The position numbers were made by a program, and so were the translations under genes. This document shows, piece by piece, positions 44,737-64,000 of a stretch of DNA of 64,000 nucleotides. How positions within the stretch are numbered: position 1 is the stretch's first letter; each line of letters begins with the position of its first letter. Source of the DNA: Paenibacillus thalictri (GTDB lineage Bacteria; Bacillota; Bacilli; Paenibacillales; NBRC-103111); assembly GCF_004307995.1 (NCBI RefSeq), contig NZ_SIRE01000004.1, forward strand, positions 403,309 through 467,308, read 5' to 3'. The notes below the pieces were generated by a model, which made no database searches, was not told the origin of the DNA, and worked only from the letters and a program-made list of their open reading frames with translations.

Positions 44737-44739
44737 TCT

Positions 44740-46758: not shown

Positions 46759-47772
46759 TTGGAAAACAAATTGCCAACCCAATTTCAAATCTATTCCGTT
46801 CTCAAGCAATTTTCGTCTGCGGATCATCCTATGAATGCTGCGGAAATCAAAGAAAAATTGATAAGCATGTATCATCTGCCGAAGGGGCCCGACCGTAAAA
46901 CCGTCTATAGCCATATTCATGAATTGCAGGTACTGTCGGATAACGGCATTCTGGATTGTGAAATCTTCGCCAAAAAAGACGATCATAACAGAACCGCCGG
47001 TTATTATACCGACCCCGTTATAACCAAAGCGGAAGTGAAGCTCCTCTGCGATGCCATTGCCTATTCACGTTTCATAAAGAAGAATCACAGCATCGATCTG
47101 ATTAAGAAAATAGGCGGGGCTTTCGGCAAGGATTTCATTTCCAAGTACAAGTACATCCTGGAGTTAAAAAACAAAGAGAACAAAGATTATAACGATTCCT
47201 TTTTCAACAGCATCGAAAATATCGCTGACGCCATAGAGAAAGGAAATAAAGTAACACTTCAATACTTGCAATATGATCTGAATAAAAAATTGGTGCCTAA
47301 AGATAAAGAAAACGACGGTTTCCGTACGGTAAGTCCCTATAACTTGGTTTGGACATTAAACCATTACTATTTGTTCTGCCACGTTGAAGAGCATGGACAA
47401 GATCGATTTCTGCGGATGGATAAAATCAAGAATGTAACCGTATTAGAAGATGAGAGAATCAAGCCGCTTCCCGCAAGCTTTAATGTCCGGGACTACATCC
47501 GGAATCAAGCTTTCATGTTCGGAGGCGACCTGGTGAGCATTTCCCTGCGTTGTGAAATGCGTATGCTGGGGCAAATCATCGATTTCTTCGGTGAAGATGT
47601 AGAGATCGCTCCCATCGACGACCATTATTTCAGAGCCCATATCAAAAGCTCCATCGAGAGCATGAAATATTGGGTGCTGCAGTATATCACTGCAATCGAT
47701 CAGATCCAACCGGAGAGTCTGCGGAAAATGATCGTGCATTATTTGGAGGACGCTTTGAGGCGGAATCAGTAA
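46759..47772 (+). CDS. wHTH-WYL-domain transcriptional regulator (BrxR/CapW-like)
   Basis: N-terminal wHTH (FQIYSVLKQFSSADHPMNAAEIKEKL) and WYL domain (YNLVWTLNHYYLFCHVEEHGQDRFLRMDKIKNVTVLE). TTG start with AGGAGG RBS. Divergently oriented from the AAA/Sel1 operon and directly upstream of McrBC-like genes. Confidence 0.75.
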   Translation: MENKLPTQFQIYSVLKQFSSADHPMNAAEIKEKLISMYHLPKGPDRKTVYSHIHELQVLSDNGILDCEIFAKKDDHNRTAGYYTDPVITKAEVKLLCDAIAYSRFIKKNHSIDLIKKIGGAFGKDFISKYKYILELKNKENKDYNDSFFNSIENIADAIEKGNKVTLQYLQYDLNKKLVPKDKENDGFRTVSPYNLVWTLNHYYLFCHVEEHGQDRFLRMDKIKNVTVLEDERIKPLPASFNVRDYIRNQAFMFGGDLVSISLRCEMRMLGQIIDFFGEDVEIAPIDDHYFRAHIKSSIESMKYWVLQYITAIDQIQPESLRKMIVHYLEDALRRNQ

Positions 47773-47780
47773 AGGAGCGT

Positions 47781-50408
47781 ATGATTGAGACGGATGAGCT
47801 GTGCTCACAGGAAGAAAGCAGGAGGAATATGGGCATTATAAACGACTTTTCGCTGAATAAGCTTGTTGAGATTAAACGGGCGGCACAGGCTTACAACGCC
47901 GTCTTGATTACCGGCGGCTGCGGGACGGGTAAAACTTTCTTGGCCAAAATAGCAGCGAATGCCATTGCTAACGGTTATGCGGAGGAAGATACGGACAAGC
48001 TCGACGACGCGATTTGCGATAATGTCGAGTTGATTCATTTGCACCCGGGTTACGGTTATGAGGATTTCGTACAGGGGGTTTTCGTCAGCACTGTAAATGA
48101 CGATCTGAAATTCGAAACAAAACCGAAAATATTTCTACAGGCGATCGATTGTGCCCTGCGAAAGGAAAATAGGGACAAAGCTGTAGTGCTCATTCTGGAC
48201 GATATTCACCGGGTCAACGTCTCGTCCGTATTTGGCGAGCTGCTGTCCGTCTTGGAGAACCATCGCTCGGAGCAGCCCCAAGACGAGATTACGTTGGTGA
48301 ATGGCACACGGATTCCCATGCCGAGCAATCTATATCTCATCGCCACGATGAATACGGCGGTACCTAGCCCTTTTGTGCTGGATTATGCGTGGCTGAGAAG
48401 GTTTGCCGTCGTGCGTTTGGAATCCGATTACAGGTATGTGAAGCGCGGGCCTTCCTCCCTTGAGAAAGATACGGCGGAGCAGTTGTACGATCGGGTCAAT
48501 TCCATTGTGGCCGGCGGCGCGGACAATCCGACTGAAGCGGTTCAATATGCAATAGGGCACGGTTTTTTTGCCGAAGCGCCATTCCTGACTTCAAGAATTA
48601 AACGCCAGATCATTCCTCTGTTGAAGCAATATGTATTGGACGGAATTTTGGATGAATCGAAGGTGGGAACGGAAATCGACAGTCTGGACGCCAGTCTTAG
48701 TACCGGGATTACTTTGGACTACAATGACGTCGCTTCCTTCGACCTGTCAATGACGTTAAACAGGCTGAAAGAGACAGATATAGCTGATTATTTGGCTAAT
48801 ATAGAAGACAAAAGACGGTTTCAAGTGGAATTGATCGAACATCTGATTTGTCAAATGATAGAACGTAAGCTGATAGGGAACTTTGAACTGTTTTACCGTG
48901 TCATGCGCAATCCCGATATATTTCATTATCTTGAATCTGATGTCGAGCTTCATTTATTCGAGCCGCAAAATAAAAGTATCAAATTTCACGACAAACCTTC
49001 ACATTATTCAGCGGTCAAGAACAGCAATATGGTGGAGATTCACGTTTGCGGAACCAAGTATTTCCCATTCCGTGTCTATACGGCCAAAAACCAGAAAACG
49101 GCCTTAAGCAGCAATCCGAACAGAGAAAGCTCTAAAAGCTCGCTGAACCCTTTTCCTATCGCCTTCCGGATGCTTTATTATTTTTACAAGACTTATCGGG
49201 ACAATGTGAACGATTATGTTGCCAAATTCCCGGGCGACCACAATATGAAGCTGCTGCTCAACCTGGCGGACGATGAATTCAATTATATCAAGAGCTTTGA
49301 CAAACGGACAGCTAAGATCGTATGGGAGGATGACCCGGATCATCTCTCACTCGCAAGGCTCACGATTCTTTGGCCGCGGAAGGAAGACGGTAATTCAATC
49401 GAAATCAAAGGAGTATATCGAATGGAAGCGAACGATTACATAGACATCATGGATAATATGGAAGTGAGGCAGATGATTCTGCAAGGGCCCCCAGGTACTT
49501 CCAAAACCTATACGGCCAAGGACATGATTGCAGCAAAATGGAGCATTGCCAAAGATGAACTGAAAAACTTCAAGATTCCGTCCTACGACCAAGCTTGGGA
49601 TAAACCGTTTGGCTGGGACATCGTCCAATTTCACCCTTCTTACGGATATGAGGATTTTATAAGAGGCATCACTGTGGAAACGCCGGAAAACTCCACGGCT
49701 CCGCATTATAAAACGGTCAATAAACTATTAGGGCGTATGGCAGATTTAGCCCTCCGCGAAATCCATAGCGGGAAGAAGTTTTACCTTATTATCGACGAAA
49801 TCAATCGAGCCAATATCGCCACGGTGTTCGGGGAATTGATCTATGCATTGGAATATCGCGGCGAGCAAGTAGCAACTCCTTATGAAGTGAAAAATACGAA
49901 TTCCATCGTTCTTCCCAAGAACTTATACATTATCGGCACGATGAACACCGCGGATAAATCGGTCGGAGGGATCGATTATGCGATTAGAAGGAGATTTTTA
50001 TTCTTTTCGCTGACACCGGACGCAGGTGTAATTGAAACATATTTTGAAGGCAAACCCGGCGTGGAAGACGTTAAGAAGAAAGCCATCACATTGTTTCGCC
50101 ATATCGGCCTGTTTTTTGACAGCTATTTATCGGACGGATACCATAAGGATGATTTGCAGATCGGGCACACCTATTTCTTGGTCGACACGGTACAACAATT
50201 AAAGGATCGGTTCAAATATCAAATTGTCCCTATACTGCGCGAGTATTATAAGGACGGTTTGCTCGATAGCGGAGAAAGCGAAACCAAGCCGGAATTGAAA
50301 GATTTAAAAGCCTTTATTTCCGGAACCGAGGGATCGGCGGACGCGATGTTCGCGAAGTTAACGGCGGCAATTACGGCGGCGGCAGCAAACGGTCAGAAAG
50401 CGGAATAG
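47781..50408 (+). CDS. McrB-family AAA+ GTPase with two tandem AAA+ modules (N-terminal module degenerate, C-terminal canonical); start uncertain (47781 or 47829)
   Basis: Module 1: Walker A LITGGCGTGKTFLAK, Walker B-like LILDDIHRVNVSSVFGELLSVLE, IATMNTAVPS. Module 2: ILQGPPGTSKTYTAK, LIIDEINRANIATVFGELIYALEYRG, IIGTMNTADKSVGG (canonical McrB DEINRAN and NTAD motifs). The track ORF start at 47670 overlaps the regulator gene by 100 nt and is rejected. Confidence 0.75.
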   Translation: MIETDELCSQEESRRNMGIINDFSLNKLVEIKRAAQAYNAVLITGGCGTGKTFLAKIAANAIANGYAEEDTDKLDDAICDNVELIHLHPGYGYEDFVQGVFVSTVNDDLKFETKPKIFLQAIDCALRKENRDKAVVLILDDIHRVNVSSVFGELLSVLENHRSEQPQDEITLVNGTRIPMPSNLYLIATMNTAVPSPFVLDYAWLRRFAVVRLESDYRYVKRGPSSLEKDTAEQLYDRVNSIVAGGADNPTEAVQYAIGHGFFAEAPFLTSRIKRQIIPLLKQYVLDGILDESKVGTEIDSLDASLSTGITLDYNDVASFDLSMTLNRLKETDIADYLANIEDKRRFQVELIEHLICQMIERKLIGNFELFYRVMRNPDIFHYLESDVELHLFEPQNKSIKFHDKPSHYSAVKNSNMVEIHVCGTKYFPFRVYTAKNQKTALSSNPNRESSKSSLNPFPIAFRMLYYFYKTYRDNVNDYVAKFPGDHNMKLLLNLADDEFNYIKSFDKRTAKIVWEDDPDHLSLARLTILWPRKEDGNSIEIKGVYRMEANDYIDIMDNMEVRQMILQGPPGTSKTYTAKDMIAAKWSIAKDELKNFKIPSYDQAWDKPFGWDIVQFHPSYGYEDFIRGITVETPENSTAPHYKTVNKLLGRMADLALREIHSGKKFYLIIDEINRANIATVFGELIYALEYRGEQVATPYEVKNTNSIVLPKNLYIIGTMNTADKSVGGIDYAIRRRFLFFSLTPDAGVIETYFEGKPGVEDVKKKAITLFRHIGLFFDSYLSDGYHKDDLQIGHTYFLVDTVQQLKDRFKYQIVPILREYYKDGLLDSGESETKPELKDLKAFISGTEGSADAMFAKLTAAITAAAANGQKAE

Positions 50409-50411
50409 CCC

Positions 50412-51818
50412 ATGAAAAATAAGCTTTTCCCAGGAAACGACTGGTCTGTCCTCAACAAATTGCCAGACTGGCTGACAGACCTGGACCTCAGCGACCGGCA
50501 TCATCCTTACACCAACCTTGGAATCTATCAGGATCAACAAGGCCGTTACCTTGCGAAGGGATATGTCGGCGTATGCAGGCTAAAGGCAAACGGCAGAAGG
50601 GTGCTCGATAAAGAAGGACGGGAGTGCATCCTGCGGGTAGTGCCTCGTTTTCCGGGACTGGAGCCACTCGCCATGTTGAATGAATTGCAGGACGATGACG
50701 AATTCGCGCAATATTTAATGCCGGAAAGGGCGCTTTTGAAGGGAAGCACGGAGGAATCCAAGGATATCCTGGACAATGAACTGTTTTACTTTTATCCGAA
50801 TGAACCGCTGATCCCTTTAGCTCATGAGGCTATGAAAGACAGCAGCCTATTAACGGTTATGCTTTTTCTTAACGGCTTGAAGGCGGTGTGCAGGAAGCCG
50901 CTCATGGGATCGATGCAGCAACACGAGGAGAATTTAACCGGCAAGGTCAAAGGTAAAATACTGGTATCCCCTAATATTAAACATAATGCGGCGAGAGCAA
51001 GAGTTGAGCGTATATATTGCCGGTATCAAGTGTATAGCATGGACATCCTTGAGAACCGGATTTTGAAATATGCGCTCCATAAAGCAAACCGGTTTTTGAA
51101 TCGATTTTTCAGCCATGTCTCAACGGACTCACTGCAGAAGATCAGGCAAGCGGTACATTATTGTAATAAGGCACTGGAGCATGTAAGCCTGAAGAACATA
51201 ACGGAAGCCGAGCTCAGATCCGCCAAAGCCGCCGGGTTTTACGCTTATTACAAGCCGGTGCTGGAGGCCGCGAAGATGGTCATCAAAGGCATCTCGATTC
51301 GAGCCGACGGCGAAGTGGAGGATGTAGGTTACATTACCCCATATGCCATCAATATGCAGAAGCTGTTTGAGTTTTATGTGAGGGCGGTGATCAAGCGAGA
51401 GTTGAAGAAAAACCCGGATTGGCATATATCGCTTGAGCCTTATTTTAAACCGCATGAGATTCACCGCAACGAAAACATTTACTTGATGAGAAATGTCCGG
51501 CCCGATATTGTGCTCAAGTACATGAAGCTTGAAGGGGACCAATCTGAAGCTAAATATATCGTATTCGATGTAAAATATAAGAGGAGTGACAACAAATTTT
51601 CTGCAAGGGAAGATACTCACCAGCTCCTGAGTTATCGAATGTTATTTGATGCGGAGCATATCGGGTTCCTATTCCCGAATTGTGTAGAAAGCAGCCAGCC
51701 CACCGAGATTGTCTCGCGGCAACATACAAAAACTTACTATTATCAATTCAAGGTCTCTTTAGAAGAGAAAGGCTGTGCAAAGCTATGCCAGTTTCTCGGA
51801 GGTATTGGCAGTTCTTGA
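50412..51818 (+). CDS. McrC-like PD-(D/E)xK nuclease subunit
   Basis: 468 aa immediately downstream (4-nt gap) of the McrB-like gene. Nuclease motif RPDIVL...IVFDVKYK near the C-terminus; N-terminal McrC-like region. Confidence 0.65.
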   Translation: MKNKLFPGNDWSVLNKLPDWLTDLDLSDRHHPYTNLGIYQDQQGRYLAKGYVGVCRLKANGRRVLDKEGRECILRVVPRFPGLEPLAMLNELQDDDEFAQYLMPERALLKGSTEESKDILDNELFYFYPNEPLIPLAHEAMKDSSLLTVMLFLNGLKAVCRKPLMGSMQQHEENLTGKVKGKILVSPNIKHNAARARVERIYCRYQVYSMDILENRILKYALHKANRFLNRFFSHVSTDSLQKIRQAVHYCNKALEHVSLKNITEAELRSAKAAGFYAYYKPVLEAAKMVIKGISIRADGEVEDVGYITPYAINMQKLFEFYVRAVIKRELKKNPDWHISLEPYFKPHEIHRNENIYLMRNVRPDIVLKYMKLEGDQSEAKYIVFDVKYKRSDNKFSAREDTHQLLSYRMLFDAEHIGFLFPNCVESSQPTEIVSRQHTKTYYYQFKVSLEEKGCAKLCQFLGGIGSS

Positions 51819-51831
51819 AGCTTTTGATATG

Positions 51832-51857
51832 AGACCGCCGCGGCGGTCTTTTTTTTG
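51832..51857 (+). terminator. Rho-independent terminator closing the WYL-McrBC module
   Basis: AGACCGCCG/CGGCGGTCT perfect stem followed by TTTTTTTT. Confidence 0.8.
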
Positions 51858-52190
51858 TTCATGTGCGGTTATACATAGTTGGAGTAGATGATGGGATGGA
51901 CGTTCCTTCGACAGCAGCTTGCGGATGGGGGCGACGAACCGCTCCTTCTCCCTCCAAGCTGTGTTACTATTGTCGTTTGATCTTACATACCTTCACAGCG
52001 TCTCCCGGCAAAGCCAACAATGACTCCCCCTTGCCTCGGCCTACTCCTGCACGTGCCGTGTATCCTTCCTTATGCGTATCGCTTCCGCATGCTCTTTTCG
52101 ATAGCCGAACCACCTGCTCAAAATGCTCAAGCATTACCCGCAACGCACAAAACACACGCTTCCCCTCAAGGACTCGGAGTGAGGTTCTTC

Positions 52191-52589
52191 TTAATAAGAT
52201 ATTAAGTGCCCCCAATAATACACTCTTTTCCCCTCACACCTTGCCATAGCTGCACCAGACAACAACTTCGCCGTTTTCCGATCAATGAAGCCGTCGGTGG
52301 TGTACGGATTGTAGTACGCCTCCCGCAGGGGGGCATCTCCGGCTCCCAGCATCTGTAACCCACGCTGGAATCGACCTCGGACGAACGCATGCACGTTCTT
52401 CTCTTTGTCGCGGCGTGCACGTCGCTGGCCCGAAAGGCGAACGACAAACGTGACGTTGGTGACAACAATGCTGTCAGCGTAGCCGAGAATGCGCTTCGTT
52501 CGCGCATCGCGGATGGAAAAACAGCATTTGTAGAAATGATAGGCAATCAGCACAACCTGATCTTCTTGCAAAAACGAGAATTCCACCAT
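52191..52589 (-). CDS. Hypothetical protein (132 aa); possibly a gene remnant at the module junction
   Basis: ORF with weak resemblance to a DDE-transposase core (ILGYADS). Adjacent 82-aa ORF 51967-52215 in another frame suggests a decayed gene; nothing conclusive. Confidence 0.25.
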   Translation of the reverse strand: MVEFSFLQEDQVVLIAYHFYKCCFSIRDARTKRILGYADSIVVTNVTFVVRLSGQRRARRDKEKNVHAFVRGRFQRGLQMLGAGDAPLREAYYNPYTTDGFIDRKTAKLLSGAAMARCEGKRVYYWGHLISY

Positions 52590-52675
52590 ACCCTATCACC
52601 CGTTTCTTTGTGATAGTTACTAGTATGCTGGAATTCACTGGTTTTATAACCGCGGCAGCGAGTCATTCGGCATAT

Positions 52676-53476
52676 TTATACTGTACACACACAAGGCACG
52701 GTATCTTCTTCCATAGCGGAGTAAGACGCCGCTCCTTCACGCTCGAGCAACTCACGGTATTCACGGAGCGTGTAGGGACCACCGTTTTTTTTCAAAATCG
52801 AGACGTCCTTGTCAAAATGCTCCCGAAACTGCTCTTCCATTTCTTCCTGTTCCCGGTACACATCCGGCCACGTCTGCAACAGATGAGCGTAGTGCTGAAA
52901 GCCGCCACGGACACAACGTCCACCGCAGTTAGCATGAGAGAAGCCCAGCTCATACATAAGAGGCAGCTTAATTCCCCATTTGTCTTCGATAATTTTCTTT
53001 GCATCAACCTCTTCTCGGAATGTCGTGATTAAGGGAAACCGAGTCTCAACAGGCTCGAGCGGGTAGTGCTCGTAGAAGTTTTTGAGATTGACCGCACGGT
53101 GCTGCTCATGGCGTCCGATACCGAAGTAGAGCACAGGCTCAAGTTGATGGTCCGAACGTAGTTCCTCAAGGAAGATGAGTGTTTGCCGCACTTTCAGCTC
53201 TTCCGAGCACTTGGCCAGCCTTGAATTACCCATGAAACGGTAGTCGTAAAATACCTGCTCCGGCGTCCGCCCGTCAGTACGGTACGTAATTTCGAGCCCC
53301 AGGTAATCCGCAACCTCATGCATAAATCGATAATTATCTTCATGCTCCCACAGCGTGTTCGTAAAAAAGAGCATGCAGTTCTCCTTACCGTACGTGTTAA
53401 CCATATGATAAGCGACATACGCGGAGGATGCTCCCCCGCTGTACATGGCAACATGGATGGGTTTGCGTTCAACCAT
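52676..53476 (-). CDS. PAPS-reductase-like PP-loop ATP pyrophosphatase (DndC/SspD-like)
   Basis: PP-loop VAMYSGGASSAYVAYHM (SGGxxS variant) near the N-terminus, 266 aa, C-terminal Cys cluster (CGGRC...CVCTV). Confidence 0.65.
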   Translation of the reverse strand: MVERKPIHVAMYSGGASSAYVAYHMVNTYGKENCMLFFTNTLWEHEDNYRFMHEVADYLGLEITYRTDGRTPEQVFYDYRFMGNSRLAKCSEELKVRQTLIFLEELRSDHQLEPVLYFGIGRHEQHRAVNLKNFYEHYPLEPVETRFPLITTFREEVDAKKIIEDKWGIKLPLMYELGFSHANCGGRCVRGGFQHYAHLLQTWPDVYREQEEMEEQFREHFDKDVSILKKNGGPYTLREYRELLEREGAASYSAMEEDTVPCVCTV

Positions 53477-53509
53477 AGTCAGCTCTCCCTCCTTGGCTGT
53501 AAGATCAGC

Positions 53510-56500
53510 TTACACTTCCTGCAATAGCTTCATTAGTAGTTGCTTAAGTTCCTGGGGCGGCACATCGCGGCCTCCATGTTTGAGAATGTTTTTCACATTC
53601 GCATACAGTGTCTGCGATTTCTTGGAAAGTGGCTGCGTCAGATCGACTTCGGCGCTCATCCCTGCAGCCACCTGTATCGCCGGCAGCAACAGCTCCCATT
53701 CATACTTCATCTGTTTGCCAAAAAGCTCCTGCGTCGCGTCCGACCATGCTTTCCGCCCTACTCCCACCATATGCTCAATGAGTCCCTCCAGCAGTCGTTC
53801 CTCCATACCTGCGCCCAGCGGCAACGTTTGTAGCCGACTATTAAGCCCTATTGCGGCGCCGCGCAGCCGCAATAGTTCCTGCACGAACGCCGGTGCGGAA
53901 TCTACACCGGCCAAAGCGAACAACTCGCTTTCCAATTGAGCCCGATTCATGTCCATGAAGCCCTCTAGCTCAGTGCGAGCTTCAACCAGCTGTGGCTCCA
54001 TCGCGGCGAGTAACCGGATGTTCCGGTACGGATCCGTCTCCGTCGCGCGGATATATGCCCGAATCTGCTGCGTCCCCGTAGACAACTGGCTCGTGATTTG
54101 GGCAAACATCGGCAGCCCGCGCAACCAAGCGAGCATAACGTCCGTAACACGTAAGAAACTTGTCGCTTCCTCCACGGGTAAGCCAAAATGCGCACCAATG
54201 CGGGCAAGCTGCCCTTTTTCCTGCGACGTCAGAATGAAGTAGCGGTATTCATAATCGTCTGCTCGCTCAATCAGCTCATAGACGGACTCGCCGTTTAGGT
54301 GCGTAGTAAGCATATCTCCGGCATAGAATAGCAGTTGCTCCCAATGCCCGCGCAGCAGCGCCACAAACAGTACTGGAATGACGGCTGCGCGGATGCCGTA
54401 GGGCGGCTCTTTCAAAATGCGCACGAGGTCAGCTAGCGAGCCAAATGGCTTCTGTCGGATATGGTTAATCAACTCCATAGCCAAAGGTTGCAAGCCAGAA
54501 TCCGGCTGTAGCCCCCCGCCTGGTTCACACAGAAAACCGTTGTTCTTCAACGTGCTGACATAGATGAGATAATTTGGTCCGTATCCGGTGATACCGAGGT
54601 TTGGCTCCTCCGGTTGACAGATCAGTCGGTTGATGACATCGATGACAGCCCGTTTCTGAATCGCAGAGATGCGATTGCGGTTAAACGCCTCATTGCGAAT
54701 TTGCGGCGTACCCGTATACGTATTTTCTAGACGCTCCGAAAGCAATCTTTCCAACTCAACGACAGAGCGCAATTCACGATGTTCTCCATTTACCCACCAC
54801 CTCAACTGCTCAAATGACACATAGGGTTCCACGAATTGCCGAATTCGTGAGCTCGTCTGCTGCTGAAGATACTGAAGTTCATTCTTCAGCCGGGCATCCT
54901 GAGCCGTGAAAGAGCTGTCCTGGAGCAGTGCTTCGATAACCGCATACTGCCTCAGGCTCGGCCACACGCGTTCAGCCACGAATGAAGGAATCGCGCAAAT
55001 TTGCTCAAGTTTCAGGCGCTCTAATTGTGTCGCTCCTTGCTGCATTTGCTCCTCATCATCAAAAAGGACGAGCAAAACCTCGTCATCCGCTAACGCTGGC
55101 GTGGACGGAGCGACCTCCTGCTCCAGTTGATCGAACCAGACAAATCGATACGTAGCATAGCGAAGCATATACATCCGATCGTTGTATTCATTGGGCAGCA
55201 CATACGGCGTCGGCAAATGCTTACCCAACAACTCGACCGCCGCTTTGCGGCTCAGTGCCAGCGTCGCCACACGCTCGGCAATGACATTGTCGATATCCAC
55301 TGAGCTGCCGTCATGTAGCTCCCACTGCAGTCGCACCTCGTTGTAGCGCACAATCTTGAGCGCTGCCAACTGCGCAAGATTTTCCACCACTTCGTCAACA
55401 GCTACACCAAGTGCAAAAGCAATGAACGCTGCGCTCATCTGCTGCTTCTGTGCCAGGCGGCTGACTGCGCCGAGCGTCAGCAGGCGGGCGATACGTGTCT
55501 GTAACGGAGCCCTCCGTGCCAGATAAGGCGCGATCCGGCGATACAACAGCAACGCCGGCTGATCGGGTTGGTCCGCGTGATCCATGTCGAAGTAGCTGAA
55601 CAGCTTGTCCGCATAATAGTATCCGTCTTCCTGGGTAACGTGGTCACGCAATCCGTAACGCTCATCGTCGCCATAGAAGGAGAAAAGCGTTCGTTCATTT
55701 TGACCAAACACATTGGATAAGAACGGTAGTATAACAACAGCTGCAGGATGCAGCGGATACAAGCCCTGAAGGATGTAATTTTCCAACTGGTAAGGTGTGA
55801 ACTCGGTGAATAACGGATAGCTCTGCAGATTAGCAAAAGTCTCTTTCTCTGCTGCCGAGATCAGGCTATGTGCATTGATTTCGGTTCCCGCCTCCTGGGC
55901 AAGACGCAAATAAGTGACAGCGTCTGTTTCCAACTGGTAATGACGAAAGCGTTTTTCCACCTTTTCAAACTCGGTACGAATCTGTTCTTTGCTTTGTGCG
56001 GCGTATTGGCGGATATGCTTGTGACCGACCAGCAGCAGTTGCAGATTCGGCACGCTGTTCGCGAGCTCTGCCAAGTCCTGCAAATCCTGCATGTTGCGGA
56101 TCGCATCCTGTGGCCTCAGTGACTGCAGGAAGCGCCCGAATTCATCATAGACAAGCGTAATACCTTGTCCATGCTGCCTCAGCTCCTCTAGCAAGCGCTC
56201 GATATTATAGGTAAAATGTTCTTCATGCCCCACGCTCCAAGCTGTACCCGAGGTCACACTAGGATAGAAGTCGATGAACGCCGCGATTAGCTCCTCACTG
56301 TACCCTTGCACCTGCCGCAGCCACTCTGCCTCTTCGAGCTTCAGGCTAGCCAAATGCTCCCGAAACGCACTGTATGCATGGGGATACAATTGTCTCCAAC
56401 GCTCCACCGTGGTGAGAATGCTGTGAACTTCGTTCGGCGTCGTCACGTTCAACCCTGCCTGCTGCAGCGCTCTGTGCAACGCAGCGTTGATGATTGTCCG

Positions 56501-56857
56501 TAGCTCCCCCGATTTGCCGTTAATGATCACGGGCAGATAAGCCAGCGATAATGGCGGCAACCGCCGCAGCCGATCAGCCAGTATCTGATCGTAGCGGTCA
56601 GCCTGCCGCAGCAGCTTGTCCCACCAATCGGCGTTAAACTGGCGGGAAAACAGTTGGCACACAATCGCCGAGACTAGCGACTTTCCGGTCCCATAGGGGC
56701 CGACCAGCAGATGGGAGTGCATGCCCTCGGGACTTTCCACACTTTCCAGAATGCCTCGTAGCACATCTGCATGCGAAGTAGACAGCAAATAGCGATCTAT
56801 CAGGCTTTCATTGGTAAGATCAAACTGTATGTTAATACTTGCTTTATAACGAGCCAT
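53510..56857 (-). CDS. Large P-loop ATPase, DUF499/BrxC-like (candidate SspC-like); start at 56857 (stop/start overlap TAATG) or 56878
   Basis: Walker A LLVGPYGTGKSLVSA near the N-terminus. >1100 aa, largely alpha-helical remainder, the size and architecture of BrxC/PglY/SspC-type ATPases. Translationally coupled to the upstream gene. Confidence 0.55.
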   Translation of the reverse strand: MARYKASINIQFDLTNESLIDRYLLSTSHADVLRGILESVESPEGMHSHLLVGPYGTGKSLVSAIVCQLFSRQFNADWWDKLLRQADRYDQILADRLRRLPPLSLAYLPVIINGKSGELRTIINAALHRALQQAGLNVTTPNEVHSILTTVERWRQLYPHAYSAFREHLASLKLEEAEWLRQVQGYSEELIAAFIDFYPSVTSGTAWSVGHEEHFTYNIERLLEELRQHGQGITLVYDEFGRFLQSLRPQDAIRNMQDLQDLAELANSVPNLQLLLVGHKHIRQYAAQSKEQIRTEFEKVEKRFRHYQLETDAVTYLRLAQEAGTEINAHSLISAAEKETFANLQSYPLFTEFTPYQLENYILQGLYPLHPAAVVILPFLSNVFGQNERTLFSFYGDDERYGLRDHVTQEDGYYYADKLFSYFDMDHADQPDQPALLLYRRIAPYLARRAPLQTRIARLLTLGAVSRLAQKQQMSAAFIAFALGVAVDEVVENLAQLAALKIVRYNEVRLQWELHDGSSVDIDNVIAERVATLALSRKAAVELLGKHLPTPYVLPNEYNDRMYMLRYATYRFVWFDQLEQEVAPSTPALADDEVLLVLFDDEEQMQQGATQLERLKLEQICAIPSFVAERVWPSLRQYAVIEALLQDSSFTAQDARLKNELQYLQQQTSSRIRQFVEPYVSFEQLRWWVNGEHRELRSVVELERLLSERLENTYTGTPQIRNEAFNRNRISAIQKRAVIDVINRLICQPEEPNLGITGYGPNYLIYVSTLKNNGFLCEPGGGLQPDSGLQPLAMELINHIRQKPFGSLADLVRILKEPPYGIRAAVIPVLFVALLRGHWEQLLFYAGDMLTTHLNGESVYELIERADDYEYRYFILTSQEKGQLARIGAHFGLPVEEATSFLRVTDVMLAWLRGLPMFAQITSQLSTGTQQIRAYIRATETDPYRNIRLLAAMEPQLVEARTELEGFMDMNRAQLESELFALAGVDSAPAFVQELLRLRGAAIGLNSRLQTLPLGAGMEERLLEGLIEHMVGVGRKAWSDATQELFGKQMKYEWELLLPAIQVAAGMSAEVDLTQPLSKKSQTLYANVKNILKHGGRDVPPQELKQLLMKLLQEV

Positions 56858-57744
56858 TACCGCGCCGCCGCCTTCCATTCATAAGCCTTCTCCAGGAACG
56901 CGTATGGATCTTCGGCTTCAACCGTTAAGTTGTAGATCTGGTTCGTTCGTACGAAATGCACTGGATAGCGGGGATCTGCTTCCAATTGCGTGAGCGCATC
57001 AAGGATATGATTGGAGCTCAAATTGAACATTTTGCCCCACAGCAGCGGTTTGTATTGTAGCTCCTCCAATGTCACACTGCTAACCTGCGATCTCTGGCAG
57101 TACACCAACAATGCAAAGTAGAGCGCTTCAATGCTCACATCCATCAGCTCCGGTGTCCGCTTCACGAACTGCTCTTTGATTTCATGCAGCAAATGCAGCC
57201 CGGTGAGCGGGCTTGCCACTACTTCCTCGGGATCGTCCTCTTGACGCGAGCGAATCGTGTACAGTTGCCTCAGGCAGTCGAGGTCTTTTTTGAGCGAGCC
57301 CGCGGAAACCGTCTTGCTCGTCTGTTGCCGTGTCCACTCCGTGAGAGCTGCATGCAGTTCCTCATTCGTTGCGGAGCGAGACGCATATTCATTAAAAAAC
57401 CAATACCACGTCGTGGCCTGATCCCGATTCGATGCAAGAAAATAATGCAACAGCCCCGAGGTTAGCGGCAGCCGGATAAAGCGGTCGTGCCGATGCATCA
57501 ACTGGCCGAACGGAGTGATGACGTTAATCGGCCGACCTTCCTCGTTCTTCGCTTCCGCGATCACACCCGTCGCCAGCGACCAGAACTTCAGCGACTTCAC
57601 CATATTACGCCCCAGTCCAATGCGTTCAAAGCCGAAGTCGTCGTAGAAAAACCTTGCGCCCTGCTCATCCTCGAGCAGCATCCGGATCGCTTTTGACAAC
57701 CAATTCACCCGCAAGTAGAAACTCTGATGATGTCCAAAACGCAT
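56857..57744 (-). CDS. DUF4007-like protein (candidate SspB-like)
   Basis: N-terminus MRFGHHQSFYLRVNWLSKA matches the remembered F.(R/G)HE.F..R..WL.K signature of DUF4007. 295 aa. 10-nt gap to the upstream giant gene. Confidence 0.5.
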   Translation of the reverse strand: MRFGHHQSFYLRVNWLSKAIRMLLEDEQGARFFYDDFGFERIGLGRNMVKSLKFWSLATGVIAEAKNEEGRPINVITPFGQLMHRHDRFIRLPLTSGLLHYFLASNRDQATTWYWFFNEYASRSATNEELHAALTEWTRQQTSKTVSAGSLKKDLDCLRQLYTIRSRQEDDPEEVVASPLTGLHLLHEIKEQFVKRTPELMDVSIEALYFALLVYCQRSQVSSVTLEELQYKPLLWGKMFNLSSNHILDALTQLEADPRYPVHFVRTNQIYNLTVEAEDPYAFLEKAYEWKAAAR

Positions 57745-57753
57745 AGAGCGAAT

Positions 57754-60700
57754 TCATCCTTCCCAGCGATCTTCGTTAAAAAATTTAAGCAACGCGTTCT
57801 GTACGCTATCGGTCAGAAAAGGACTCTTGCCCCGTAGCACGTCAGGTTGATCCAGACGGGCGAGGAAATCACCCTTGCCGCCGAGCCGTTCCGCTCCTTC
57901 CTCGTCCAAAATGATTTTCGACGCGTGATGATCCGTCGCCCTTAGCGCCAGTCTTGCCGGCAGGTTGTTGCGGATATTGGTCGGCACGATATCGGCTTTC
58001 GGGCTTTGCGTACAAATTAGCAAATGAATGCCTGCTGCGCGAGCCTTGGCACCCAAGCGAGTGATGGCGCCTTCAACACGGCTGCTTAAGCTTTTATTCT
58101 GCAGCATGAAGTCAGCAAACTCATCAAACACGATAACCAACCTCGGCAGCTTGGCGCCGGTTGCTCGATTATACTGATCGATGCTGTTCACATCCGCTTG
58201 TTCAAAGCGCGCATACCGCTGCTCCATCTCGTCAACCAGCCGTTCCAGCATAGTGACGGCTTCTTCAATCTCAATAATGACCTGCAAAGTGTGTCGCTTG
58301 TTTTTATATTTGCTGAATTCGACCTTCTTTGGATCAATGAAAACAAATTGCACGTGCTGCGGTTCATACAAGCACATCATGGCGAGAATGATTGAATTGA
58401 TCGTTACACTCTTACCGCTGCCCGTCCTCCCCCCTATCAACAAATGTGGAGTCTCGGGACTGGAGAAATCCATGTAGATCATTTCTTTCAATTGACCAAC
58501 GCCAAGCGGTGCTATTAACCGACCTTCCAGTTCGTTGGCCAGCACTTGTGTTCTCACCTGCTGCATGAAGGCCTCGAAATAAACAACAGCCGGCTTATAG
58601 CGATTAATGTCAATGTTGATTTTACCGCCTCTAATCTTGATTAGCGGCGGTCCGCAGTCCAACCAAAGCTGAATTTCCTGCGCTCTGCTTTCAATGCTGC
58701 TGAAGGGCTTATCGATCGGGATTTGCAGCATGATACGAATGACACTCACGCCAACGACCGTGTCCGTAATCGTGATACGAATGCCGAGCTGATGGAAATT
58801 GGCGCGCAGCTTGCGGTGGTAGCCTTCGACCAACAACGCGAGGTCTTCGTCTTCACCGGCAATCGGAGCAAGCTCACCGGCCAATGCCAATTGCTCAGGA
58901 TTGACCGCCTCAGATGGCGCCTTGGCGGCAGCGACCAACGCACGAGCTTCACTCAGCTCAGCCAGGGCATAGACTGTTTCTGCGCTGCCTATGCACTCAG
59001 ATTCATCAAACCGCTCGATTTGCCCAACAGTACTAGCTATTTCTTTGCGCTCTTCAAGCCGTTCGCTCGCTTCGTCAAGCTCTGCCGTCCTGGCCTGGCT
59101 CGGCAATTCTGTCGTCAGTTGCCGAGCATTACCTTCTTCCTCGTCCTTCACTTCCGTAAACGTCAGCTTGCCTGCTACAATCTCTTCGGCTTGTTCGACT
59201 TCCGAATAATCCGGATCAATACTTTCGGCCGAAGCGCCAAGCGCTTTTAAAATATACGACCGGTTATAAATATGATTCACAAATTCGTTGTACAATAGCT
59301 CCGTCTGATATCCACCTTGATGATCTGCCATCAACGTGCGTTCAAGCAGATTTGACGTGTACACGAACGTATCGATGGCCCCAGCGAACGACACGTCAAT
59401 TTGTTGCAGCGAAATATCCTGCAGTTCCTTAAGCAACACGGAATGTTCCACCGAATATACACCAAACTCGAGCAAATAATAGACAAGCTCCTTGCGCATC
59501 AACTCGGCGCTTGCGCTCAACTGCTCAAAATCGAACCGGTTGCGGTAAAGCTCAAGCCCCGCCCGCACCTGCTTGATGGCATCGTAGCGTTCCGCCTCGA
59601 AGCTGCCATAAGCTATAAATTTCATTTCGATCAGATCAAAATGAACCCTGATGCGTTCTCCGTCACGAGTAATGCGAGTGCCGACCAAATCCGGTCGCCG
59701 CTGGGAACCGTGAAACCATGGTAGCTCGTCACAGACCGACCAAACTGTCAGCGCATCCCCATCAGTCCGCACGCGGGCCTGCGTGGATAAATACATGGCC
59801 ATCAGCTCATGCGCGAACTTGCCCGGTCCTATCGCCCGAAGCACGACGCCTCCGGAAATTTCCTGAACCTTCTCGACCGCTTCTACTAACTTGCGGCGAT
59901 CAATATGATCGTTCTTGAGCAGTACCACGAACTTCTGATACAACCGATCGTAGTAAGCGTGGTCCACTGTGCCATGGACTAGCTTCCGAATATACTTGGA
60001 GGACGAGAGAATCGAGCGAAATTCTTTATTCTTACCTACTTTGGATTTGTACTTGATGATTTGCGCTTCCGATGAAACGTTGCGCAGCAGCGATTTATCT
60101 AAATATCGGTCAATGAACAACGACCAGTTGAAGGTTTGGTGCATAAAGGTAATAAGCGAAGCATCCTCCGTACGGTGCAGGGAGATCACATTACGCAGCA
60201 AGAAATGCTCCTCGGGCTCCATGACCTGATTCGTCTGCAGCACCGCCTGCAGCTGATAGAACAACTGCAGCACTTTCGGTAGCTTCTCGCTGATGAAGCT
60301 GATCTTTTTGACTGCATCGTCCTTCTTCATGGGTTCTTTGTAGATTGTCTCAAACCAGTCTGTGGAGGGCTCCACTCGAACTTTCTCCAGCTTGTACTGA
60401 ATGCCTGCGGTTTGGCCAAAATAGTTGACCAACACGCCAATATCGGCGTCCTGAATCGCTCCTGTAATACTTGCCTTGATCTTGTTAATTTCCTGCTCGG
60501 CAATAATCTGAATCTCTACTCGTGGAAAGCCGTTTACCTTCTGTATGTAAGATTCTTCCTGAGCCAGCCAGCCATTCAAGGAAGCATGAAGTTCAGCGCC
60601 GCATTGATCACTGTGAATCGTCGCCTTGATCTTCCTGATCGACGTATGTCTCAGCACGGTATCAATAGCTTTAACGATATATTTGGCATGTGAACAGTAA

Positions 60701-62910
60701 AGGAAGACGAAGTCCAAGCAGTCCTTGGCATAAGGATACACTTCCAAATAAGTCTTTACCGTGCTCAGAAACTCTTCGGCAAACGTGTCGACCAGTTGGT
60801 CCTCCCCGCTGCGCTGTCCATTCAAGGTAAAGACGCCTTCGCCCATGCTAGCCTGCCGCTCGATCAGGTACTGATCGTTTGTCCCTTCCAGGACATAATA
60901 AACAGGCGAAAGATGCGCCGTCGCTTCAGCGATGCTCTGAATGTAATCGCTCAGATGGCCCGCCGCCAGCCGCCCTTCAGACAAACCGTCCATCCACGCG
61001 AGAAGTTCCAGCTTCAAACGAGCCATCCGTTTGGCATAGCTAATCAAGCGAATCGGATTCAGCAGCGTCAGCGTGCGCTCGTGAGGGTAACCCACTTCAT
61101 GCGACTGACAGCTCAGTCGATCAATCGCTCCCAATAAGCCCACATACTGATACACATCCCTGGCAAGGATGGACGTCTGAATGCCGGTCAGCACTTCTTC
61201 CAGCGCCTGTTCCAATGCATCTACGTCCAGGCTACCCAGACCATGTACCACGATTTCTTGTAACAAAGCGGTATATCCCGTCAAGAAGCTGACAAAATGG
61301 TCGTAGGCAATTTGCGTCTTGTGTTCCCCCCTAGCCTGCTCGGTAGCGATATATCCAGATACCCGCTTCCCTACCTCAGCCAGCACATCCACTTTCTGAG
61401 TAACCCGGCCGGCGTATTCGCGGACGTAAGGCACATGTCCGTTTTCCTCCAGCACGCCTAACAACGCCGCCAATTGGCCGCTGCCAGCTTGCAGCAGCTT
61501 GAATTTCTTTTTGATGGCTTTGTCTCTGGCAACAAGCATCAGTTGAAACGAAACATCGCTCTCCTTGTCCTTCTCACCGATGGCCTCCTCAAGCGATTTG
61601 GCGTCAAAATGTATTTTGCCCGTCAGTTTCTCCAAATGACCTAAATGGAAAGCGAGCATCTTGCGCTGTCCCTCGCTCACCTTGCTTGCAACTTTCAGCA
61701 CAAAATGTGTCTGCGCCGGCTCAAGCATATCCTCCTCACTGAACTCCTCCAGCAAGCGGAAACTTTCCTGCAGCAATGCCTCGGACAGCTCTGTATATTC
61801 ATGCAGTTGGCGCTGGCGTTCTGCAATTCGTTCCAGCTCCTTACGCAGCGGCTTATTCTCTTGCAATTCCTGTGTGAATTCGTCCAGAAACGACTGGATT
61901 ACATCAGGGTTGTTGCCCTCATCAATCGCTTCCAGCGCTTCCGCCAGTATTTGCTTCTGCTTCGCATCAAGCGGTGTGCCCAGTGTATCCGTGAAATCTC
62001 GGAGCTTCTCCGGCGTTTTCTGCTTTTTTATTTTGAAGGACAGCGCTTGATGTGCCACCTCAAATTCATAATACAAGAACTGCGGTTTGTGATGATGGAT
62101 AAAGGACAGCGCTTGTTCCTTGAAAGCGTCCGGTTCGACACTCTCCCAAACCTCATGCAAGTATCCATTTTCCTCTTCTTTGGCAAGAAAGGCATATAAA
62201 TTCTCAATCATGTCTTCCTTGCTTGCCGATCTACCGTCTTTCTCCAGGCGGGCCAGCTGGTAATTTTTGCGTAACCTCTGCTCCCCTTCTTTAGAGAACT
62301 TTAGTGAACGATCACGGAACAACTGCAACTGCGGCAGATTACGATTGATATTGTCCACCATCGACTGCTCGGGATGACATAAAACCGCCTCAAGAAACAA
62401 CAAGACATTGCGTAACTGGGGCTCAGCGATTTTGGCATATAGAACAAAAAAATTGCGAAGCATCTCCAGCTCCTGACCGTAGATACCATACGTCTCAGCC
62501 AACATGTTGTACAGGATCGACAGACCCTCTGTTCGCATCAATCTGGCTTCATCAATCGTGAAAATGTTTTCCAAACTCTGTGCCTCAGCTGAATGCTCCG
62601 TCATCGCAATAATCAATGCATGACCGGCTGCCGTATTGTTGCGTAACCATGTGCTTGTCTCATGCTCACGGCACCCATAACGTTCGAAACCCGCCACGGG
62701 AGAGAGCGTGCGAATTACAGGCTTATAGACAGCCGCCAGCTCGGCCTCTGCTGCCTGCAGTTCACCAATTACCGCTGGCCAGACTGCTTCGTCGACACCA
62801 GATATTTTGATAAACAACTTATCGCCGTTCTGATTTTTCTGTTCCTTGCTGTACTGCCTGACCAATTCCACTATCCACTTACCAAGCAGCACCTGATTCG
62901 AATTAGACAT
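57754..62910 (-). CDS. 1718-aa protein with C-terminal FtsK/SpoIIIE-type DNA-translocase ATPase domain (DndH/SspH-like candidate); start re-assigned to ATG 62910
   Basis: C-terminal Walker A LLIGGRTGSGKSVTINS, Walker B RLVIVFDEFADFM, and LICTQSP...R finger region typical of FtsK/SpoIIIE. RBS GGAGGG 5 nt before MSNSNQVL. 8-nt overlap (ATGTCTAA) with the upstream gene. Confidence 0.7.
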   Translation of the reverse strand: MSNSNQVLLGKWIVELVRQYSKEQKNQNGDKLFIKISGVDEAVWPAVIGELQAAEAELAAVYKPVIRTLSPVAGFERYGCREHETSTWLRNNTAAGHALIIAMTEHSAEAQSLENIFTIDEARLMRTEGLSILYNMLAETYGIYGQELEMLRNFFVLYAKIAEPQLRNVLLFLEAVLCHPEQSMVDNINRNLPQLQLFRDRSLKFSKEGEQRLRKNYQLARLEKDGRSASKEDMIENLYAFLAKEEENGYLHEVWESVEPDAFKEQALSFIHHHKPQFLYYEFEVAHQALSFKIKKQKTPEKLRDFTDTLGTPLDAKQKQILAEALEAIDEGNNPDVIQSFLDEFTQELQENKPLRKELERIAERQRQLHEYTELSEALLQESFRLLEEFSEEDMLEPAQTHFVLKVASKVSEGQRKMLAFHLGHLEKLTGKIHFDAKSLEEAIGEKDKESDVSFQLMLVARDKAIKKKFKLLQAGSGQLAALLGVLEENGHVPYVREYAGRVTQKVDVLAEVGKRVSGYIATEQARGEHKTQIAYDHFVSFLTGYTALLQEIVVHGLGSLDVDALEQALEEVLTGIQTSILARDVYQYVGLLGAIDRLSCQSHEVGYPHERTLTLLNPIRLISYAKRMARLKLELLAWMDGLSEGRLAAGHLSDYIQSIAEATAHLSPVYYVLEGTNDQYLIERQASMGEGVFTLNGQRSGEDQLVDTFAEEFLSTVKTYLEVYPYAKDCLDFVFLYCSHAKYIVKAIDTVLRHTSIRKIKATIHSDQCGAELHASLNGWLAQEESYIQKVNGFPRVEIQIIAEQEINKIKASITGAIQDADIGVLVNYFGQTAGIQYKLEKVRVEPSTDWFETIYKEPMKKDDAVKKISFISEKLPKVLQLFYQLQAVLQTNQVMEPEEHFLLRNVISLHRTEDASLITFMHQTFNWSLFIDRYLDKSLLRNVSSEAQIIKYKSKVGKNKEFRSILSSSKYIRKLVHGTVDHAYYDRLYQKFVVLLKNDHIDRRKLVEAVEKVQEISGGVVLRAIGPGKFAHELMAMYLSTQARVRTDGDALTVWSVCDELPWFHGSQRRPDLVGTRITRDGERIRVHFDLIEMKFIAYGSFEAERYDAIKQVRAGLELYRNRFDFEQLSASAELMRKELVYYLLEFGVYSVEHSVLLKELQDISLQQIDVSFAGAIDTFVYTSNLLERTLMADHQGGYQTELLYNEFVNHIYNRSYILKALGASAESIDPDYSEVEQAEEIVAGKLTFTEVKDEEEGNARQLTTELPSQARTAELDEASERLEERKEIASTVGQIERFDESECIGSAETVYALAELSEARALVAAAKAPSEAVNPEQLALAGELAPIAGEDEDLALLVEGYHRKLRANFHQLGIRITITDTVVGVSVIRIMLQIPIDKPFSSIESRAQEIQLWLDCGPPLIKIRGGKINIDINRYKPAVVYFEAFMQQVRTQVLANELEGRLIAPLGVGQLKEMIYMDFSSPETPHLLIGGRTGSGKSVTINSIILAMMCLYEPQHVQFVFIDPKKVEFSKYKNKRHTLQVIIEIEEAVTMLERLVDEMEQRYARFEQADVNSIDQYNRATGAKLPRLVIVFDEFADFMLQNKSLSSRVEGAITRLGAKARAAGIHLLICTQSPKADIVPTNIRNNLPARLALRATDHHASKIILDEEGAERLGGKGDFLARLDQPDVLRGKSPFLTDSVQNALLKFFNEDRWEG

Positions 62911-63913
62911 AGCTGCCCTCCATCGCGCTGGCATAAGGATTGTGAATCATCGCGGTCGCATCTGAGAATTCCACCAACAGCCCATTAAGCTTGAGCTTAC
63001 TGCGGAGCGCCTTCTCATTTTCCTGAAAATACCGCACATTTAGCTTCGATCTGGTATAGAGTCCACTGCTCTTTGCCTGCTGTTCGCCGATCACGATGTG
63101 ATAATCCTGGTAGAGCGTCTCAAGGAATTCGTGGTATTCCATCTTTTCCTTAGGCCTTACCTTCGTGAACACAAGCATTTGCAGAAACGAATCCGAGATC
63201 GTGTACCGGTAATTTGCCCCTGAACCCCGACGGAACGTCGCAAAGCCCCCATCACGTGAAAGTGTACGTGTAACGTTCAGTTGGTGCTTCTTCATTTGCT
63301 CAGACACCGCTTCGCGTACTTCCGAATACAGCTTCGTCAACACATCATCGGTCGTGACGCACTTGGCTAGTACACGTTTGATCGCTTCTTTGCGTTTGAC
63401 CATCGATTTGAGACCCAACTTATCGATGAACGCATCAGGATCCAACTTCCAAGCCGGGAGTTGTTCTGCAATCTGCTCAGGCTGCCCTACCGCATGCCTG
63501 AAGTTCTGCTCAAACTCGCGTTCAAAACGACTTTTTATTAAATTCTCATGCTCGTCAAAAATACGTGCAGACTGCTGAAATAACGGTTTATTACCGCCTT
63601 CCAGACAATCGCAGAAATACAAGTGGTCCGAGTCCTCTTGCAGCGAGCGCTCATGCATGTACCGGGCTAACTGGAAACAAACAAGCGAGGTCAGCAGATG
63701 AAACATATCCAGAATTTCGATATCGACCAATAACAATCGCTCAAGCTCATAAGCAAACTGCGTGAACAGTTGCTTATTCTCCTCGTAGGCTGAAGAAGGC
63801 AGCATGGGTACTTCATCCGGAGCATTCTTCCCGGTCCCTGTTTTTTTTGCATACAACTGCCCTCGCTCTTCTTTCTCACGAATTTCAAAGGCACCTGTAA
63901 TTTTCTCCACCAC
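62903..63913 (-). CDS. Hypothetical protein, >=336 aa (frame stays open to the window end, so it may be longer); candidate DndG/SspG-like partner
   Basis: Clean ORF overlapping the downstream giant gene. Frame continues without a stop from 63913 to 64000. No motif recognised. Confidence 0.4.
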   Translation of the reverse strand: MVEKITGAFEIREKEERGQLYAKKTGTGKNAPDEVPMLPSSAYEENKQLFTQFAYELERLLLVDIEILDMFHLLTSLVCFQLARYMHERSLQEDSDHLYFCDCLEGGNKPLFQQSARIFDEHENLIKSRFEREFEQNFRHAVGQPEQIAEQLPAWKLDPDAFIDKLGLKSMVKRKEAIKRVLAKCVTTDDVLTKLYSEVREAVSEQMKKHQLNVTRTLSRDGGFATFRRGSGANYRYTISDSFLQMLVFTKVRPKEKMEYHEFLETLYQDYHIVIGEQQAKSSGLYTRSKLNVRYFQENEKALRSKLKLNGLLVEFSDATAMIHNPYASAMEGSYV

Positions 63914-64000
63914 TTTTTCAATGGCCTTGTTTCTTGTCAGTAGATTGGCAATGCGCGATTCAATAAATGCCCTGCGCTGAGGCTCTCCATCTGTCCCATG

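Follow-up and report, generated by a model that had tools for sequence, protein, structure and literature searches.

The minus strand at the end of a 64-kb stretch of the Paenibacillus thalictri contig NZ_SIRE01000004.1 (the window, within which all gene positions are counted) very probably carries the distal portion of one sspF-G-H-B-C-D operon together with a small extra gene and encodes a phosphorothioate (PT) defence system of the SspBCD-SspFGH type. According to two reports, SspB, SspC and SspD together with a desulfurase write a single-strand PT at a short motif, which is 5'-CpsCA-3' in model systems (PMC8092258, PMC12914056). SspFGH damages DNA that does not contain PT, is toxic and positive in terminal deoxynucleotidyl transferase dUTP nick end labelling (TUNEL) when PT is missing, and blocks phage DNA replication (PMC8092258). 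We regard the identities, order and intactness of the P. thalictri genes, their catalytic motifs and the nuclease fold as shown here. With this locus, a published defence system that is already within reach of PADLOC-type tools gains a Paenibacillus member; the annotation of the locus is otherwise routine.

Organization of the ssp operon and its modification genes

The open reading frame (ORF) listing displays positions 52191-64000 of the minus strand as a tight array of large co-directional ORFs. In the direction of transcription, the array consists of sspG, of which only the 3' 365 codons are present (62903..64000) in an ORF that is open to the window edge, sspH (1718 aa, 57754..62910), sspB (295 aa, 56857..57744), sspC (1115 aa, 53510..56857), sspD (266 aa, 52676..53476) and a 132-aa gp82-like gene (52191..52589), all on the minus strand. 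The junction between sspG and sspH is an 8-nt overlap (ATGTCTAA), in which the sspH ATG at 62910 overlaps the sspG stop, with GGAGGG upstream. sspB follows sspH after a 9-nt gap, sspB and sspC overlap by 1 nt (TAATG), and sspC is separated from sspD by a 33-nt gap that contains GGAGGG. The gap between sspD and the 132-aa gene is 86 nt long, and no terminator-like site was found on the minus strand between these two genes. The ssp ORFs are full-length in comparison with their orthologues, their Walker, PP-loop and cysteine motifs are intact, and the junctions are translationally coupled.

An earlier note on this DNA described six co-directional minus-strand genes at 52676-64000, several of them translationally coupled. 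The direction, the coordinates and the coupling are borne out by the junctions given above, but the count is not, as this range holds five ssp genes. The first two genes of that list, a frame at the edge and a protein of at least 336 aa, are one sspG gene cut by the window end because the frame is free of stop codons from 64000 to 63913. A sixth co-directional gene does exist at the opposite end of the array, where the gp82-like gene lies just outside the range of the note. When 52000-64000 was compared by megablast with the genomes and plasmids of E. coli, no match and no near-identical DNA were returned.

The combination of a DUF4007 protein, an ATPase and a PAPS-reductase had been proposed to represent the SspB-SspC-SspD core, and each of these proteins is recovered by its own PADLOC Ssp model. 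SspB is the 295-aa protein with the N-terminus MRFGHHQSFYLRVNWL that had been called DUF4007-like. It matches the Pfam DUF4007 profile over its full length (positions 1-288 of 288, 2.9e-63), PADLOC SspB (1.1e-54) and, among the PDB sequences, the solved SspB structures 6juf/6lb9 (2.4e-9). SspB is a triple winged-helix DNA-recognition protein according to Aravind and colleagues (PMC10853773). SspC contains the Walker A motif GPYGTGKS at residues 53-60 and matches PADLOC SspC PDLC02779 with an E-value of 6.9e-111 (370 bits), compared with 2.4e-36 (123 bits) for the best BrxC model. In Pfam, only a sub-threshold AAA_16 match is obtained for SspC and DUF499 is not returned, so that the assignment rests on PADLOC SspC. 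Thus, the previous description of a DUF499/BrxC-like ATPase of more than 1100 aa is retained in its size, its GPYGTGKS motif and its SspC family membership and loses its Pfam DUF499 label. In the Pfam hidden Markov model check as a whole, DUF4007, PAPS_reduct and FtsK_SpoIIIE were matched and DUF499 was the one that was not. The note had considered that the 295-aa and 1122-aa proteins could fall into unrelated families; they belong to the SspB and SspC families. The start codon of sspC is more likely the ATG at 56857 (1115 aa) than that at 56878 (1122 aa) because the resulting TAATG overlap with sspB matches that of the Paenibacillus radicis locus (L001).

SspD was predicted to be a PAPS-reductase-type PP-loop enzyme with an SGGASS motif, and the 266-aa protein indeed matches Pfam PAPS_reduct above the curated cut-off (30.1 versus 22.5 bits, 6e-7) as well as PADLOC SspD (2.2e-12). 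The PP-loop and residues C90, C184, C188, C262 and C264 show no variation among 10 SspD sequences from Bacillota, and the cysteines of the CGGRC motif and the C-terminal PCVC motif are likewise invariant. What accounts for the high conservation of SspD, which is 83-85% identical to its orthologues, compared with 51-60% for the other Ssp proteins? Third-codon-position identity is ~32-41% across all of the genes, and synonymous sites are saturated. Recent gene transfer is rejected as an explanation because the third-codon-position identity of sspD, about 40%, is like that of the other genes; for the same reason, the high identity points to stronger purifying selection on the enzyme. The best solved-structure match of SspD is chain C of PDB entry 21fy ('PptA', 8e-14), for which a literature search found no paper.

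The ORF at the window edge is SspG. Its 365 residues match PADLOC SspG PDLC02801 (3.5e-50) at profile positions 239-532 of 533, which corresponds to the C-terminal 55% of the profile, and share 60% identity with the C-terminal portion of P. radicis SspG, which is 529 aa long. SspG is 529-533 aa long in L001 and in a further locus of the same organization (L003), and the gene upstream of sspG in these two loci encodes a full-length SspF (PADLOC 1.4e-194 and 2.5e-193, respectively). ORFs that match SspF in size and position are also found in L002, L004, L023 and L024. Given that the syntenic L001 and L003 loci carry full-length SspF at this place, we predict that the ~170 N-terminal codons of sspG and an sspF gene of roughly 1.7 kb for a protein of 556-560 aa lie just beyond position 64000, where an SspF-like gene had been anticipated in the earlier note.

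A scan of representative genomes with SspB identified 13 loci. The order F-G-H-B-C-D is common to P. radicis, Paenibacillus sp. H1-7, a Bacillota metagenome-assembled genome and Neobacillus niacini, and 8 Paenibacillaceae loci have kept FGH-BCD together as a block. The order varies at L005-L009, L010/L013, L012 and L025. Several Bacillaceae loci are arranged as BCD-FGH, and in Exiguobacterium sspD is inverted and located upstream of FGH-BC. L025 from Clostridium aceticum has the order D-B-C-A-F-G-H with a 575-aa SspD, and L012 from Alkalithermobacter consists of B-C-A followed by three large ORFs, the second of which contains an SspG-like stretch. Both L025 and L012 encode SspA within the operon and have no gp82-like gene.

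Motor and predicted nuclease domain of SspH

SspH is recognized by PADLOC SspH PDLC02806 (4.1e-100), which agrees with the earlier view of the giant FtsK-domain protein as an SspH-type component. The 1718-aa protein consists of an N-terminal region of uncharacterised fold, a restriction endonuclease (REase)-like domain and an FtsK motor. The C-terminal FtsK/SpoIIIE ATPase that had been noticed in this protein is evident from matches to Pfam FtsK_SpoIIIE (5.5e-43) and to the PDB FtsK structure 2ius (5e-36), and in a profile of 46 SspH sequences, the match to the FtsK alpha/beta domains begins at profile position 1340. The P-loop ATPase core is encoded at 58000..58527 on the minus strand, and its motor motifs, Walker A (GRTGSGKS, residues 1494-1501) and Walker B (VVFDEF), are intact. 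NCBI annotates the identical 1718-aa protein as 'FtsK/SpoIIIE domain-containing protein'.

Which subunit of SspFGH damages DNA? In the literature searched, the DNA-damaging subunit of SspFGH is not stated, and a nuclease in SspH is not described. The orthologue alignment, however, reveals an invariant E...D...PD...ExK...Q motif set ~400 residues upstream of the SspH motor. In P. thalictri SspH, the set is represented by GPGKFAHE(1035), CD(1061)ELPWF, RRPD(1074)L, FDLIE(1095)MK(1097) and AIKQ(1114), and the third-strand motif follows the pattern F-D/E-L/I-I/V/L-E1095-L/M-K1097 in the alignment. The motif set is conserved in 46 Bacillota sequences, which were collected with the full-length protein as a query because a middle fragment of SspH returned only 2 proteins. 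When the profile of this region was compared with PDB sequences and Pfam at E <= 10, only noise was obtained and no domain was detected. An AlphaFold2 model of residues 890-1240, built from the 46-sequence alignment, shows a core with a predicted local distance difference test score of about 85-97, and the motif residues sit on its helix-strand-strand-strand-helix core. The model thus displays the alpha-beta-beta-beta-alpha core, the acidic residue on strand 2 and the (D/E)xK motif on strand 3 that characterize the PD-(D/E)xK fold, and it matches REase-fold nucleases. The predicted PD-(D/E)xK domain spans residues ~1010-1130 (59521..59883, minus strand).

Because the invariant motifs and the REase-fold model lie ahead of the FtsK motor, SspH is likely to be a nuclease-translocase in which a PD-(D/E)xK domain is joined to a C-terminal FtsK-type motor, similar to DndH, which has been described as an REase plus HerA/FtsK protein (PMC10853773). 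A nuclease of this kind would account for the TUNEL-positive damage that SspFGH causes. The predicted domain brings SspH and DndH into line architecturally, and the intact REase-fold region beside the FtsK motor offers D1074, E1095 and K1097 as concrete targets for point mutation.

The gp82-like gene and the surrounding island

The 132-aa gene at the end of the operon encodes a protein that is identical to an NCBI protein of P. thalictri and matches Pfam Phage_L5_gp82 (1.2e-19) and phrog_586 (1.7e-20), a family listed with 'unknown function', over its full length. It is located directly after sspD on the same strand in 8/8 Paenibacillaceae-type ssp operons, namely, those of the window, L001, L002, L003, L014/L015 (two metagenome contigs), L021 (P. 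ihumii), L023 (Cohnella abietis) and L024 (Thermobacillus xylanilyticus). The genes downstream of it all differ between the operons and include an HNH nuclease, a type IV restriction enzyme, an AAA_5/DUF2357 pair, an acetyltransferase gene, an SLH-domain protein and a PPDK_N-domain gene; in the window, the gp82-like gene borders a convergent McrBC-like module. Since its position is fixed and the genes beyond it all differ, the gp82-like gene marks the conserved end of the cassette. This small seventh gene of the Ssp operon is previously unreported.

At 50% identity, the very large gp82-like family falls into 7391 clusters, and most of its members are proteins of 110-140 aa. Its relatives are found overwhelmingly in phages, in arrays of small early-type genes. 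A gp82-like gene is carried in 124 GenBank phage records, mainly from Bacillus and Streptomyces phages, and is annotated as hypothetical in all of them. Large Bacillus phages carry the gene in early regions that belong to their terminal redundancy. In phiNIT1, it lies within the annotated terminal redundancy, and in P59, it lies within the annotated repeat region; several related phage records contain two copies. Moreover, the fold recurs as a domain in uncultured-phage proteins of 766-1442 aa (Foldseek against BFVD; phrog_2774) that are named Zeta toxin, ART-PolyVal-like, LT_GEWL or PcfJ-like. These phage contexts suggest that the family plays a role in phage-host conflict. The P. thalictri protein shares the family-wide invariant residues S25, G54, R55, K64, N65, H67, Y93, N94, P95 and Y96, and the polar ones among them (S25, R55, K64, N65, H67, Y93, N94 and Y96) hint at a site for binding or catalysis. 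A sulfur-relay role of C23 and C118 was considered and rejected. The conservation of these two cysteines is not evidence for such a role because the Ssp-linked proteins are close relatives and the cysteines recur elsewhere in the family, in 37% and 19% of the other members sampled, respectively.

What does the gp82-like protein contribute to the ssp operon? By guilt by association, a role in the Ssp system is plausible. A bolder and more tentative proposal, which we consider possible but rather unlikely, is that the protein is a true seventh component of Paenibacillaceae-type Ssp systems that was domesticated from a phage early/host-takeover family and modulates Ssp, and that its phage homologues are counter-defence factors. 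Under this proposal, the protein could, for example, restrain the self-toxic SspFGH nuclease-translocase or serve as a sensor, and the phage homologues could act on the same or a related target. Instead, the gene may have been left behind by a phage or mobile element and sit at the cassette edge as a passenger that plays no role in Ssp, and we grant this explanation a substantial chance, short of an even one. It agrees with the size and the mostly phage distribution of the family, with the occurrence of one gp82-like homologue beside ligA in the absence of ssp genes, and with the Bacillaceae and clostridial Ssp operons that do not contain the gene; in addition, the 86-nt gap that precedes the gene could hold a promoter of its own. 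However, the gene occupies the same place and strand after sspD in all eight Paenibacillaceae-type operons with different downstream neighbours in each, no other phage genes accompany it, and its linkage to the ssp operon is old, given that synonymous sites are saturated. The operon ties a very large family to one tractable defence system and provides a route to the role of the phage homologues.

The ssp operon is part of a defence island, in which it is next to a convergent WYL and McrB/McrC-like module. All three genes of the module (46759-51850, plus strand) converge on the ssp operon. They encode a WYL-domain regulator (46759-47772), an McrB-like AAA_5 protein of 912 aa whose C-terminus has an REase-like match (47670-50408) and an McrC homologue (50412-51818), and a strong hairpin terminator at 51831-51850 closes the module. 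In L001, L003 and L014/L015, the ssp cassette is likewise flanked by restriction genes of a type IV-like or McrBC-like kind. No convincing ORF, Rfam match or minus-strand terminator was found in the ~340 bp between the McrC terminator and the stop of the gp82-like gene (51851-52190). On the other side of the module, a minus-strand cluster (36196-46599) encodes a HEAT-like 208-aa protein, a 1679-aa Sel1-repeat protein with 13 repeats, a 255-aa protein, a 187-aa calcineurin-like phosphoesterase, a 310-aa protein and a 619-aa AAA+ ATPase. This cluster gave no meaningful PADLOC match; it belongs to the same island and may be an undescribed system or unrelated.

The remainder of the window resembles a Paenibacillus chromosome, with an AraC-type two-component system and sugar ATP-binding cassette (ABC) and major facilitator superfamily transporters. 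A 2350-aa surface protein (19491-26543, minus strand) with three SLH domains and with lamin-tail, cadherin-like and Ig-like domains is ordinary for the genus and serves as no more than a taxonomic hint. Rfam and tRNA scans of the window revealed nothing relevant. An Rfam tRNA match at the gathering threshold (32798-32860, minus strand; 29.3 versus 29 bits, E 0.048), which ARAGORN does not call, probably arose by chance or marks a tRNA fragment.

Alternative readings and relation to known systems

Several points weigh against the assignment of the locus to the SspBCD-SspFGH type. The PT chemistry, the target motif, the restriction activity and the toxicity without modification are ascribed to P. 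thalictri by analogy. The model matches of SspD are modest (45 bits in PADLOC and 30 bits in Pfam), and sspF and the promoter fall outside the window. Furthermore, the 64-kb window contains no cysteine desulfurase that could be detected with a regular expression for the pyridoxal phosphate and active-site region or by tblastn with a genuine SspA, that of L025 (best E 1.4), and the earlier note had likewise seen no SspA/DndA-type enzyme. In the Paenibacillaceae and Bacillaceae loci, motif and tblastn searches found no class-V aminotransferase/cysteine desulfurase within 10 kb on either side. The missing in-locus desulfurase is nevertheless not disqualifying for Ssp membership because the type system uses IscS and SspA is often replaced: the SspBCD-SspFGH system of Vibrio anguillarum FF-93 works with IscS (PMC8092258), and SspA is often encoded elsewhere or replaced by IscS, with a 2026 survey taking sspBCD as the minimal set (PMC12914056). 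As the locus contains no desulfurase, a housekeeping cysteine desulfurase encoded elsewhere presumably supplies the sulfur in P. thalictri, an option that had been raised from the outset and fits published practice (PMC8092258, PMC12914056).

The proposed mechanism is modelled on the Vibrio and E. coli systems. SspB would recognise and nick DNA, SspC would function as an ORC/Cdc6-like ATPase and SspD as a PP-loop ATP pyrophosphatase, and the three proteins would place sulfur, delivered as a persulfide from the cysteine desulfurase, on one strand of a short motif. SspF, SspG and SspH would damage DNA that lacks PT and thereby block phage replication, with SspH as the likely effector that couples the predicted PD-(D/E)xK nuclease to the FtsK-type translocase.

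Could the locus instead encode a BREX type 4-like system, with a BrxP PAPS-reductase and a BrxC ATPase? BREX type 4 is a PT-making homologue of Ssp (PMC12914056), SspC also matches the BrxC-PglY models (2.4e-36), and orthologues carry the precomputed Pfam family BrxC-PglY_N. However, the SspC models score ~250 bits above the BrxC models, a full-length DUF4007 SspB is present, which BREX lacks, and neither PglZ nor BrxL occurs in the window or in the syntenic loci. The upstream genes, which the earlier note had envisaged as possibly of the BREX type (PglX/PglZ), are SspG and SspH. Because the DUF4007 protein is present, PglZ and BrxL are missing and the SspC models are far ahead of those of BrxC, BREX type 4 is excluded for practical purposes. 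A mislabelled Dnd (DndCDE-DndFGH) or MADS-type system has an equally negligible chance. The architecture of SspH (REase plus FtsK, about 1700 aa) parallels that of DndH, the SspH motor matches PADLOC mad8 (1.4e-24), and weak MAD7 matches are found on the window SspG (NCBIfam, 2e-5) and on the SspG orthologue of C. abietis (L023; Pfam). The MAD7 score of 23.8 bits is far under the 410-bit cut-off, though, and no Dnd model in PADLOC matches any of the six proteins at E <= 0.01. Across PADLOC and Pfam, the window Ssp proteins gave no Dnd, PglZ, PglX or BrxL matches. Dnd and MADS are excluded because their defining proteins are absent: the operon contains neither a DndD/DndE-type ABC ATPase nor a methyltransferase.

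An alternative of a different kind accepts the gene assignments and questions their coupling. SspFGH might be a stand-alone invader-sensing nuclease-translocase that sits beside an epigenetic PT writer, SspBCD. DndFGH has been argued to be commonly decoupled from its modification module (PMC10853773), 84% of sspBCD loci contain neither sspFGH nor sspE (PMC8092258), and the gene order varies by lineage among FGH-BCD, BCD-FGH and arrangements with an inverted D. In P. thalictri, by contrast, the genes form one tightly packed operon with a gap of only 9 nt between sspH and sspB, the block is kept in the 8 Paenibacillaceae loci, and the toxicity of SspFGH in the model system is relieved specifically by SspBCD-made PT (PMC8092258). 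Functional uncoupling is therefore improbable, given that the operon is single, translationally coupled and conserved as a block, and we propose that the locus is a coupled SspBCD-SspFGH system.

The closest characterized counterpart is SspBCD-SspFGH from V. anguillarum FF-93 (Wang et al. 2021, mBio, PMC8092258). The two systems share the same six families, with SspF assigned by synteny in P. thalictri, and resemble each other in that a dedicated SspA is missing, the restriction genes adjoin sspBCD, SspF has a Walker A motif and a giant SspH has a C-terminal FtsK/SpoIIIE domain. They differ in that the P. thalictri system resides in a Bacillota host as one F-G-H-B-C-D operon with an extra 132-aa gene and in that the V. 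anguillarum paper does not mention a nuclease domain in SspH. In the published survey, sspBCD-sspFGH was encountered mainly in Rhizobiales, Pseudomonas, Escherichia and Burkholderia (PMC8092258), and no Paenibacillus or Bacillus appears among the entries listed from Table S2 of that paper. The gp82-like family also appears in a different setting, as its characterised occurrences are confined to phage contexts, whereas the gene described here is chromosomal and fixed at the end of a defence operon.

The SspABCD-SspE systems of V. cyclitrophicus FF75 and E. coli 3234/A (Xiong et al. 2020, Nat Microbiol, as cited in PMC8092258 and PMC12914056) have the SspB/SspC/SspD core in common with the P. 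thalictri locus, which contains neither SspE, a PT-sensing NTPase-nickase, nor SspA. According to the same accounts, the restriction logic is also different because SspFGH attacks unmodified DNA whereas SspE needs PT for its activation. DndFGH resembles SspFGH above all in its H subunit. DndH is like SspH in its length of ~1700 aa and in an REase-fold domain, predicted in SspH, that is followed by a C-terminal HerA/FtsK ATPase (NAR 2024, PMC10853773), a comparison that covers the part of SspH after the N-terminal ~1000 aa. Both giant proteins have a P-loop protein (F) and another protein (G) as partners, and in both cases self DNA that lacks the modification is subject to their toxicity. In contrast, the P. 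thalictri proteins have no Dnd hidden Markov model match, in line with the literature, which reports no significant sequence identity (PMC8092258), and the single-strand PT of the Ssp type differs from the double-strand PT of the Dnd type.

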